Positions 15,667 to 15,976 of a DNA stretch of 22,610 nt are shown here, one piece after another. Every line of letters starts with the position of its first letter. The stretch's first letter is position 1. The notes beneath the pieces are model-generated. The model worked only from the letters and a program-made list of their open reading frames with translations. It searched no databases and was not told the DNA's origin. Both the position numbers and the translations under genes were made by a program. The stretch is from a virus. Its lineage: Duplodnaviria; Heunggongvirae; Uroviricota; Caudoviricetes. The DNA lies in the IMG/VR virus record IMGVR_UViG_2526164650_000003. The stretch is one strand, 5' to 3'.

Positions 15667-15741
15667 TGGAGCGGGCAGCGGGAATCGAACCCGCATCATC
15701 AGCTTGGAAGGCTGAGGTAATAGCCATTATACGATGCCCGC
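15667..15741 (-). tRNA. tRNA-Gly (anticodon UCC)
   Basis: Reverse complement GCGGGCATCGTATAATGGCTATTACCTCAGCCTTCCAAGCTGATGATGCGGGTTCGATTCCCGCTGCCCGCTCCA folds as a cloverleaf: 7-bp acceptor stem, anticodon loop CTTCCAA, T-loop GGTTCGATTCC, encoded CCA. Confidence 0.85.
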
Positions 15742-15744
15742 ATA

Positions 15745-15820
15745 TGGTGCCGACTACCGGAATCGAACTGGTGACCTACTGATTACAAGTCAGTTGCTCT
15801 GCCTGCTGAGCTAAGTCGGC
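15745..15820 (-). tRNA. tRNA-Thr (anticodon UGU)
   Basis: Reverse complement GCCGACTTAGCTCAGCAGGCAGAGCAACTGACTTGTAATCAGTAGGTCACCAGTTCGATTCCGGTAGTCGGCACCA: perfect 7-bp acceptor stem, anticodon stem ACTGA/TCAGT with loop CTTGTAA, encoded CCA. One mismatch in the T-stem. Confidence 0.8.
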
Positions 15821-15822
15821 GC

Positions 15823-15899
15823 TGGCCCACCACCGAGGACTCGAACCTCGGACCGTCAACTTAGAAGGTTGATGCTCTATCCGGATGAGCTAGTGGTGG
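15823..15899 (-). tRNA. tRNA-Arg (anticodon UCU)
   Basis: Reverse complement CCACCACTAGCTCATCCGGATAGAGCATCAACCTTCTAAGTTGACGGTCCGAGGTTCGAGTCCTCGGTGGTGGGCCA: acceptor stem CCACCAC/GTGGTGG (unusual C1-G72), anticodon stem TCAAC/GTTGA with loop CTTCTAA, T-loop TTCGAGT, encoded CCA. Confidence 0.75.
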
Positions 15900-15900
15900 T

Positions 15901-15976
15901 TGGTGGCCCTTGCTGGACTTGAACCAGCGACCTGGCGATTATGAGTCGCTCGCTCTCACCACTGAGCTAAAGGGCC
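15901..15976 (-). tRNA. tRNA with CAU anticodon, ileX/ileZ-like (tRNA-Ile2, lysidine type) rather than Met
   Basis: Reverse complement GGCCCTTTAGCTCAGTGGTGAGAGCGAGCGACTCATAATCGCCAGGTCGCTGGTTCAAGTCCAGCAAGGGCCACCA closely resembles E. coli tRNA-Ile2 (ileX) as I recall it. Perfect acceptor stem, anticodon loop CTCATAA, encoded CCA. Confidence 0.8.

Follow-up and report, generated by a model that had tools for sequence, protein, structure and literature searches.

Transfer RNA genes downstream of the late antiterminator gene Q are on record for several lambdoid phages. In phage 21, Sf6, ST64T, and SfI they occur together with a codon bias toward ACA (PMC3636060), and in Shiga toxin 2 (Stx2) phages an Ile/Met and two Arg tRNA genes adjoin stx2 (PMC7946995). 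The array considered here, in IMG/VR virus record IMGVR_UViG_2526164650_000003 (Caudoviricetes; 22,610 nt, all of it analyzed and called the window below), is therefore already known in kind and adds little new in that respect; the same four-gene block is also annotated in RefSeq E. coli genomes. It consists of genes for tRNA-Ile2, tRNA-Arg, tRNA-Thr, and tRNA-Gly, packed head to tail a short distance downstream of a Q gene. Very probably it is a phage-borne operon, lodged after the Q cassette and ahead of the lysis genes, and supplying decoders for AUA, AGA, ACA, and GGA. The modestly novel leads are a conserved promoter giving an almost leaderless first tRNA, a second gene with a switched anticodon, and the fact that Shigella-type genomes have kept three copies.

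The array and its first two tRNAs

ARAGORN called four tRNA genes and no more in the window; all are on the minus strand, where together they cover 15667–15976. The Rfam tRNA family RF00005 gives the same limits, which are also those proposed in an earlier note on this DNA. The gathering score of RF00005 is 29, which all four genes exceed by a wide margin (Table 1; E-values between 5e-14 and 4.6e-11), and no other family rose above threshold in the Rfam scan of the window. In order of transcription, the order that the earlier note gives without naming the strand, the genes are Ile-Arg-Thr-Gly, numbered here as slots 1 to 4. The spacers are one (A, 15900), two (GC, 15822–15821), and three (TAT, 15744–15742) nucleotides long and CCA is encoded at the 3′ end of every gene, so that the 1–3 nt spacing and encoded CCA described earlier both hold. 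A position-by-position parse gives a canonical cloverleaf in each case, with U8, the D-loop GG, U33, A37, and a UUC(G/A)A T loop throughout. The sole stem mismatches are A27×C43 in Ile, A52×C62 in Thr, and U13×U22 in Gly, each common to the nearest reference gene (ileZ, thrU, and glyT, respectively). A minimum-free-energy fold of the whole array was uninformative for the tRNAs. The array is confirmed as real, and as four canonical tRNA genes.

Table 1. Positions of the tRNA array and of other features in the window.
Feature	Position	Strand	Evidence or remark
tRNA-Ile2 (CAU), array gene 1	15976–15901	minus	ARAGORN, labelled Met/Ile(cat); RF00005 71.2 bits
tRNA-Arg (UCU), argN-type scaffold, C1-G72	15899–15823	minus	ARAGORN; RF00005 60.5 bits
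tRNA-Thr (UGU), thrU-type	15820–15745	minus	ARAGORN; RF00005 69.8 bits
tRNA-Gly (UCC), identical to host glyT	15741–15667	minus	ARAGORN; RF00005 64.9 bits
Sigma-70 promoter-like site, TTTGCA/TTGCAG, 17–18 nt, TATTAT	16015–15986	minus	consensus scan, 9/12 match
Terminator-like hairpin with seven U, candidate tR′	16096–16064	minus	scan; between Q and array
Late antiterminator Q gene, 231 aa, intact	16848–16153	minus	PF06323 Phage_antiter_Q, E 9.7e-90, profile 1–217 of 220; PHROG 304 anti-termination protein Q-like, E 1e-105
rusA	17198–16839	minus	precedes Q
Conserved 674-nt stretch, array-linked	14993–15666	minus	runs to holin start in intact relatives
IS110-family element	13508–14992		transposase 13771–14967, 398 aa, plus strand
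Tape-measure gene	7195–10154		three overlapping ORFs of 276, 400, and 367 aa
IS3-family element	~17338–18601		extent of homology; transposase ORF 17740–18558
SPFH/Band7 gene	19056–19883		between IS elements
ORF6N-domain gene	19852–20676		between IS elements
IS3-type and IS66-type transposase fragments	21939–22313, 22359–22607		right end of window

The first gene, with anticodon CAU, is identical at 75/76 positions to ileZ of Stx phages, compared with 71/76 for ileY and 69/76 for ileX of E. coli K-12. Its acceptor stem reads G-C G-C C-G C-G C-G U-A U-A, and so includes C4-G69 and C5-G68, the pairs that Ikeuchi et al. (2005) are said to have described as TilS determinants. A near-identical orthologue in E. 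coli FDAARGOS_944, a 77-nt variant of the gene, is named tRNA-Ile by PGAP. Because of these identities, the two acceptor pairs, and the PGAP name, the gene should be read as tRNA-Ile2 rather than tRNA-Met, and after lysidine modification it would read AUA. The phage tRNA-Ile2 genes, in the window and as ileZ, have A27×C43 where host ileX and ileY have G27·U43; differences between the phage and host genes gather at positions 26, 27, 43, and 44 and in the D loop.

In the second gene, tRNA-Arg(UCU), all stems are Watson-Crick paired, including the seven pairs of the acceptor stem. The first of these is C1-G72, which had been singled out earlier as atypical. This pair is unusual among E. coli-type tRNAs, where tRNA-Pro has C1-G72 and the initiator has C1×A72. 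It is present as claimed but not confined to this array: it characterizes the lineage of the slot-2 scaffold and is found also in argN of the Stx phages and in the “Lys” variants of related arrays. The identity set for arginyl-tRNA synthetase (ArgRS) comprises A20, C35, U36 or G36, and A73 or G73. With A20 (in the D loop AUCCGGAUA), C35, U36, and discriminator G73, the window gene carries the full set and is predicted to be an arginine acceptor.

Identity of this gene is 63/77 to Stx argN(UCG), 64/77 to the “Lys(UUU)” gene of the lambdoid phage PhiR47_1, and 59/79 to host argU. It shares the position of argN, starting 1 nt past the CCA of Ile or ileZ. The 5′ acceptor strand is CCACCAC, versus CCGCCAU in argN, and the anticodon is UCU where argN has UCG, despite the common scaffold, position, and C1-G72. 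The window gene thus appears to be an argN homologue with a switched anticodon. Among the slot-2 versions it is the tidiest of the three, Watson-Crick throughout and with G73.

The other versions show what else this scaffold can carry. Stx2a argN (3095–3171 of the piece compared) has a G3·U70 wobble, an A51×C63 mismatch in the T stem, and discriminator U73; G3·U70 is the alanine identity pair. From these features argN(UCG) looks like a poorer arginine acceptor than the UCU version in the window. In most related arrays slot 2 holds a gene annotated as tRNA-Lys on the C1-G72 scaffold (PhiR47_1, 3095–3171 of the piece compared; at least 69 IMG/VR contigs), with anticodon loop CCUUUAA, anticodon UUU, C33 replacing the near-universal U33, and discriminator U73. 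The corresponding loop in the window is CUUCUAA, with G73. Taken together, the slot-2 genes offer a clean natural set in which to study how one tRNA scaffold accommodates different anticodons.

Codon use in phage and host genes

Codon use was compared between 14,438 phage codons (the FDAARGOS_944 prophage, which carries the same array, plus the intact genes of the window) and 15,040 codons from 40 K-12 core genes. The codons cognate to the array are enriched in the array-linked phage genes 3.9-fold (ATA), 6.3-fold (AGA), 2.6-fold (ACA), and 2.2-fold (GGA). The proposal that the array supplements four codons rare in E. coli is borne out to this extent, with each of them 2–6 times commoner in the phage genes than in the core set. 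When all 61 sense codons are ordered by enrichment the leaders are AGG, AGA, ATA, CGG, ACA, and GGA, with the cognates ranking 2, 3, 5, and 6; the chance of finding four given codons in the top six is about 3e-5 (15/521,855). AGG, at rank 1, should also be within reach of a UCU tRNA by wobble pairing. The enrichment of the four codons holds separately in the early and the late genes of two phages and in the tail genes of the window. The pattern fits a codon-compensation model, of the kind reportedly put forward by Bailly-Bechet et al. (2007), in which phage tRNAs match codons used more by the phage than by its host.

Relative to the core genes, Shigella virulence-plasmid genes favor these codons too. 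In the entry region of pCP301, the S. flexneri virulence plasmid, which encodes type III secretion, ATA is used at 34 per 1000 codons (14-fold over the core genes) and AGA at 17.7 per 1000 (17-fold), with ACA and GGA 4-fold and 2.5-fold over K-12 core. AGA use in the prophage-borne effector gene ipaHb is 19.7 per 1000.

Transcription and processing

The promoter-like site upstream of the array (Table 1) has a -10 hexamer ending 9 nt before the +1 of tRNA-Ile; in host ileX and ileY the -10 is about 9–10 nt before the mature 5′ end. Among 117 related loci there are 13 types of upstream sequence, and in nine of the 13 TATTAT stands at exactly -15 to -10. A TTGCA-type -35, 16–18 nt from TATTAT, is kept in those types though the intervening spacers have diverged.

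Between Q and the array is also a terminator-like hairpin followed by seven U residues, a candidate tR′. Its fold in the window (-10.3 kcal/mol, z = -0.72) is not significant by shuffling, but in 92 of the 117 related loci a GC hairpin with a T run lies no more than 150 nt upstream of tRNA-Ile. When arrays behind different upstream cassettes are compared (the window and FDAARGOS_944), homology begins at the T run, at 16073. An Stx2a phage has the two kinds of signal apart: a TTGACA promoter and a hairpin with T run, resembling pR′ and tR′, right after Q, and then, about 190 nt beyond these, TTGCAA-17-TATTAT before ileZ, with a strong terminator after argO, just before stx2A. Because the promoter site is conserved behind diverged upstream types, and because the Stx2a phage has separate signals, the arrangement suggests that the array may be a transcription unit of its own between the pR′/tR′ cassette and the lysis genes, expressed independently of Q. 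An exact-protein look-up of the window Q matched no contig and no solved structure was similar by sequence, so homology could not point to a Q-specific late promoter; a candidate noted only by eye, TTGCAA-17-TATATC overlapping the end of the Q gene, is not put forward.

In the course of events envisaged, the array would be transcribed from its own sigma-70 promoter to give a transcript with a very short leader, and in an intact phage it might also be read through the upstream terminator by Q-modified RNA polymerase. Cleavage by RNase P at each 5′ end would leave the upstream tRNAs with trailers of 1–3 nt, to be trimmed back to the encoded CCA by 3′ exonucleases; this combination of 5′ cleavage and 3′ trimming is established for compact tRNA operons. 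TilS would turn C34 of the CAU tRNA into lysidine, allowing AUA to be read, and the mature tRNAs would increase the supply of decoders for AUA, AGA (and AGG), ACA (and ACG), and GGA (and GGG).

Several points weigh against this overall picture of a phage-borne operon supplying the four decoders. The consensus promoter matches in the region are not significant singly (six found, 2.2 expected), the one used here agrees with the consensus at only nine of 12 positions, and its -10 is inside a block shared by descent, leaving only the -35 and the spacing to argue for selection. The upstream terminator hairpin is weak in the window. Expression, processing, charging, and modification of the array tRNAs are all things that we infer from sequence. 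Besides AGG, whose enrichment goes beyond the four cognate codons, CGG, AGT, TCA, and CGA are enriched too. A benefit to the host, for example in translating AUA/AGA-rich type III secretion genes, may be proposed from the codon figures, but the relation is purely correlative. Finally, such arrays can decay, as seen in a paralogous copy whose Thr gene has a 1-nt deletion and a related E. coli array whose fourth gene has decayed.

Some of the same points can be turned into an alternative in which the array has no promoter of its own and is expressed only within the Q-dependent late transcript, in which case it would be silent in a remnant whose Q has been orphaned. The array does lie downstream of Q and of a terminator-like hairpin, matches as good as the promoter-like site are common in the region, and homology to the Stx phages begins just 17 nt upstream of Ile, with the -10 within the part shared by descent. 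Against it, the TTGCA-type -35 and the invariant TATTAT have been retained behind differing cassettes, with Q proteins of various lengths and, in two loci, a DUF1133 protein; the Stx2a phage has its promoter/terminator pair by Q separate from the array's own promoter and downstream terminator; and the -10 of host ileX and ileY is at a similar distance. Exclusively Q-dependent expression is on this evidence rather unlikely.

Distribution of the array

Of 5426 complete E. coli genomes, 60 carry arrays of this family when matches must cover at least 80% of the query; strain FDAARGOS_944 has the best of them (99.3% identity). Among the 25 matches listed, seven have the order tRNA-Ile, Arg, Thr, Gly in their RefSeq annotation; other listed records have Ile-Arg-Thr-“Val,” arrays containing “Lys,” or Ile-Thr-Gly. 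The surroundings in FDAARGOS_944 are those of a different phage, with a DUF1133 protein at the place of Q (no Q is named), a myovirus-type tail, and the ipaHb gene. The window has a lambda-type tail, and homology between the two is confined to 14993–16073, where identity is 98.9%; in FDAARGOS_944 this block stops 7 nt before the holin gene. Since the same block is found in unrelated prophage backbones, it is a mobile module of the lambdoid mosaic.

In IMG/VR, a pattern scan for the slot-2 scaffold found at least 33 contigs with Ile-Arg(UCU)-Thr-Gly, at least 69 with Ile-“Lys”(UUU)-Thr-Gly, at least three of the Stx type, and a few shorter forms, all lower bounds because the figures cover the first 120 contigs matched. 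All 89 complete arrays keep spacers of 1, 2, and 3 nt, with variable bases.

Among 185,579 species, represented by one genome each, the junction between slot 2 and Thr was found in only two, S. flexneri SFBU1023 and “E. coli” ECMA0423 (4.44 Mb), with three copies in each. These three are in different prophage contexts. Per genome, two of the copies differ from the window at three positions, and one of them also has a 1-nt deletion in the 3′ strand of the Thr acceptor stem.

Prophage context and decay

The Q gene ends 176 nt upstream of the array and is itself preceded by rusA. On the other side is the conserved stretch of 674 nt, 98.4–100% identical in at least 20 IMG/VR loci. RefSeq annotates no coding sequence in it, Rfam gives no match, and neither Pfam nor PHROG recognizes the two stop-free stretches that it contains (about 104 and 74 codons); the homologues of the 674-nt stretch are 98–100% identical and so give no measure of coding potential. 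A terminator scan found three terminator-like hairpins there, including those at 15408–15389 and 15053–15027. In position, this stretch fills the slot that holds stx in the Stx phages.

In intact relatives the holin gene begins about 680 nt after Gly, which is where the IS110-family element starts in the window. The element stands where the holin-to-capsid genes would be expected, joining the tRNA module to the FI packaging gene; past it are head-closure, tail-completion, tail-tube, tape-measure, tail-tip, J, and Lom genes. Because the holin start in the intact relatives coincides with the start of the IS110 element, the lysis, terminase, portal, and capsid genes have evidently been lost from this prophage. 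The placement between Q and late genes claimed in the earlier note is thus right as to Q, while the adjoining lysis, terminase, and head genes have been replaced by the IS110-family element. Upstream, an IS3-family element cuts the nin region just before rusA, and the early region is gone. With the adjacent late genes and the early region missing, supplementation of this prophage's own late genes is moot here. What the array still marks is the junction of Q and the late operon in a prophage remnant.

Other parts of the window are also disrupted. The three overlapping ORFs of the tape-measure gene match different parts of tape-measure domains, and the gene is a frameshifted pseudogene. Fragments of IS3-type and IS66-type transposases are at the right end, and between the IS elements are an SPFH/Band7 gene, an ORF6N-domain gene, and a 189-aa ORF with no family match.

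A locus in S. flexneri SFBU1023 is collinear with window positions 8425–16429 at 99.5% identity, the IS110 element and its junction included, and its array is identical to that of the window. Because of this collinearity and the identical array, the window is a degraded lambdoid prophage of an S. flexneri-type chromosome. As such the prophage is dead, a remnant no longer able to make particles, and any present benefit of the array would therefore go to the host.

The array itself might then be a functionless relic, surviving for now in a decaying prophage. Its surroundings would be in keeping with this, with the lysis, terminase, and head genes lost to the IS110-family element, the tape-measure gene in three ORFs, and the early region cut by the IS3-family element. 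Nor are its relatives exempt, given the deletion in the paralogous Thr and a related array in which the decayed Gly gene is annotated as tRNA-Val. However, all four genes in the window retain canonical structure and identity elements, the array is identical to the SFBU1023 copy while the genes around it are disrupted, S. flexneri-type genomes retain three copies, and AUA and AGA are used in host virulence genes at 14–17 times the core-gene level. A relic in this sense is improbable, more so than an array dependent on Q.

A more far-reaching proposal is offered only tentatively, as a possibility well short of an even chance. It would have the array as an autonomous, self-promoted operon, effectively domesticated in Shigella and enteroinvasive lineages, where it persists in three copies, intact within IS-riddled remnants, and serves virulence genes rich in AUA, AGA, and ACA. 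Slot 2 would be an evolvable C1-G72 scaffold, its anticodon switched between UCU (AGA), UCG (CGA), and UUU with C33 to suit different needs, possibly including evasion of defenses in the UUU form. Whatever the reason for their retention, Shigella-type genomes carry each of the four decoders (AUA, AGA, ACA, and GGA) in three additional copies, which bears on the expression of AT-rich virulence genes and on recombinant expression.

The tRNA-Thr and tRNA-Gly genes

The last two genes are close to host genes. Thr matches K-12 thrU at 74 of 76 positions, both differences being U-to-C changes in the D loop (C16/C20), and Gly matches K-12 glyT at 75 of 75. The Thr variant is present in at least 30 IMG/VR arrays, and a 100% identical copy is found in phage SerU-LTIIb; the Gly sequence is in 82 of the 92 IMG/VR arrays examined. 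In the host, thrU and glyT are separated by 8 nt, tyrU, and 116 nt, whereas in the array only TAT lies between Thr and Gly, the flanks are unrelated, and tyrU and thrT are not part of it. The two genes are phage-carried copies of the host single-copy genes thrU and glyT, and an ancient capture of both by an ancestral phage is likely.

Phage tRNAs can also act as spares, replacing host tRNAs cut by defense nucleases such as P2 Old, AriB of the PARIS system, retron PtuAB, and others, and this might be asked of the present array. Host tRNA-ThrU is degraded by P2-OLD, from which cells are rescued by phage tRNA-Thr(UGU), that of the lambdoid phage 21 among them (PMC12445682); rescue from AriB by phage tRNA-Lys(UUU) has likewise been described (PMC12445682; see also PMC10264068). 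Beyond these precedents, the array Ile and Arg do differ from the host genes. The array Thr, however, has the same anticodon arm as thrU, ACUGA-CUUGUAA-UCAGU, including the paired CUG/CAG motif that P2-OLD cuts, whereas the Thr of SfI (annotated “similar to phage 21,” and used here as a proxy for the phage 21 gene) has a different, shorter anticodon stem. An extra host thrU gives little protection (PMC12445682), and the array Gly, being the same as glyT, would not evade a nuclease that targets glyT. With neither an altered CNG motif nor a shortened anticodon stem relative to thrU, the anti-defense reading of the array Thr was rejected, and such a role for the array as a whole is very improbable.

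Least credible, to the point of being excluded at this locus, is a local rearrangement of host genes (the thrU-tyrU-glyT operon, ileY, and argU): the near-identity to host tRNA genes that the earlier note had named as a refuting outcome is indeed there for Gly (75/75) and Thr (74/76), but the spacers and flanks are unlike those of the host operon, Arg is just 59/79 to argU, and the block, flanks included, recurs at 98.9% identity in another prophage and is also kept in isolated phages and viral contigs.

Some relatives of these two genes have changed further. Phage SerU-LTIIb (KU052038.1; 1122–1197 of the piece compared) has a thrU-type scaffold with anticodon UCU, annotated as tRNA-Arg, which matches the window Thr variant at most positions, has a D-stem mismatch, and lacks A20. 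It is probably a decaying duplicate, to judge by these changes. As it stands it mirrors, in nature and in the opposite direction, the classic anticodon switch from Arg(UCU) to Thr(UGU). The D arm of Stx argO (3185–3261 of the piece compared) is that of the phage Thr (AGCAGGCA) with an inserted A giving A20. This hints at an origin of argO from phage Thr(UGU) by anticodon shift, but such an origin would be speculation, since over its whole length argO is about as close to host argU (56/77) as to Thr (57/77). In the array of E. coli CFSAN029787, the fourth gene, annotated as tRNA-Val (2811–2881 of the piece compared), has an altered anticodon loop, one C fewer in the 3′ strand of the acceptor stem, and no CCA; the “tRNA-Val” of these related arrays was rejected as a new member and is a decayed Gly, a copy of glyT.

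Comparison with known systems

In its packing, the array resembles the tRNA clusters of T4-type phages and the E. coli operons separated by RNase P, which are also head-to-tail and nearly spacerless, so that one 5′ cut almost makes the 3′ end of the neighboring tRNA. The sequences are unrelated, those systems belong to virulent phages or to the host, and the window array encodes all of its CCA ends. To the K-12 thrU-tyrU-glyT-thrT-tufB operon it is related through two genes, with the same mature Gly and a Thr differing by two D-loop changes; gene order, spacers, and flanks are unrelated.

Phage 21, SfI, Sf6, and ST64T, with tRNA-Asn(GUU) and/or tRNA-Thr(UGU), use the same slot and, including as they do a tRNA-Thr(UGU), have prompted a published argument from ACA bias (PMC3636060). 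The Thr in this group is of another lineage, however, with an anticodon stem of GUCGC/GCGAA versus ACUGA/UCAGU in the window; there are no Ile, Arg, or Gly genes, and the spacer is 5 nt. Much closer are the Ile-“Lys”(UUU)-Thr-Gly arrays of lambdoid phages such as PhiR47_1 (PV340566.1), which have the same four slots, 1-2-3 nt spacing, and 93.6% identity over the array. Their Thr and Gly match thrU and glyT exactly, and the upstream Q cassette and the downstream sequence differ from those of the window.

The ileZ-argN-argO array of Stx2 phages (933W type; Stx2a_F349, AP012530.1) occupies the same slot downstream of Q, and the kinship with it that was suspected earlier is upheld by the first two genes, with Ile 75/76 to ileZ and Arg on the argN scaffold. 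In both arrays a single nucleotide separates the first CCA from the second gene (63/77, with C1-G72), and the same TTGCA-17-TATTAT site ends 9 nt before the first tRNA. Differences begin in slot 2, where the anticodon is UCU in the window and UCG in argN, and where argN has G3·U70, A51×C63, and U73 while the window gene has Watson-Crick stems and G73. The third gene is Thr(UGU) in place of argO(UCU), to which it is 57/77 identical, the Gly in fourth place is extra, and toxin genes follow the Stx array only. Thr and Gly are therefore not additions to a complete Stx-type array, as had been supposed; they take the place of argO, behind an argN homologue that has UCU. With these differences, the window array appears to be a homologue of the Stx ileZ-argN-argO array.

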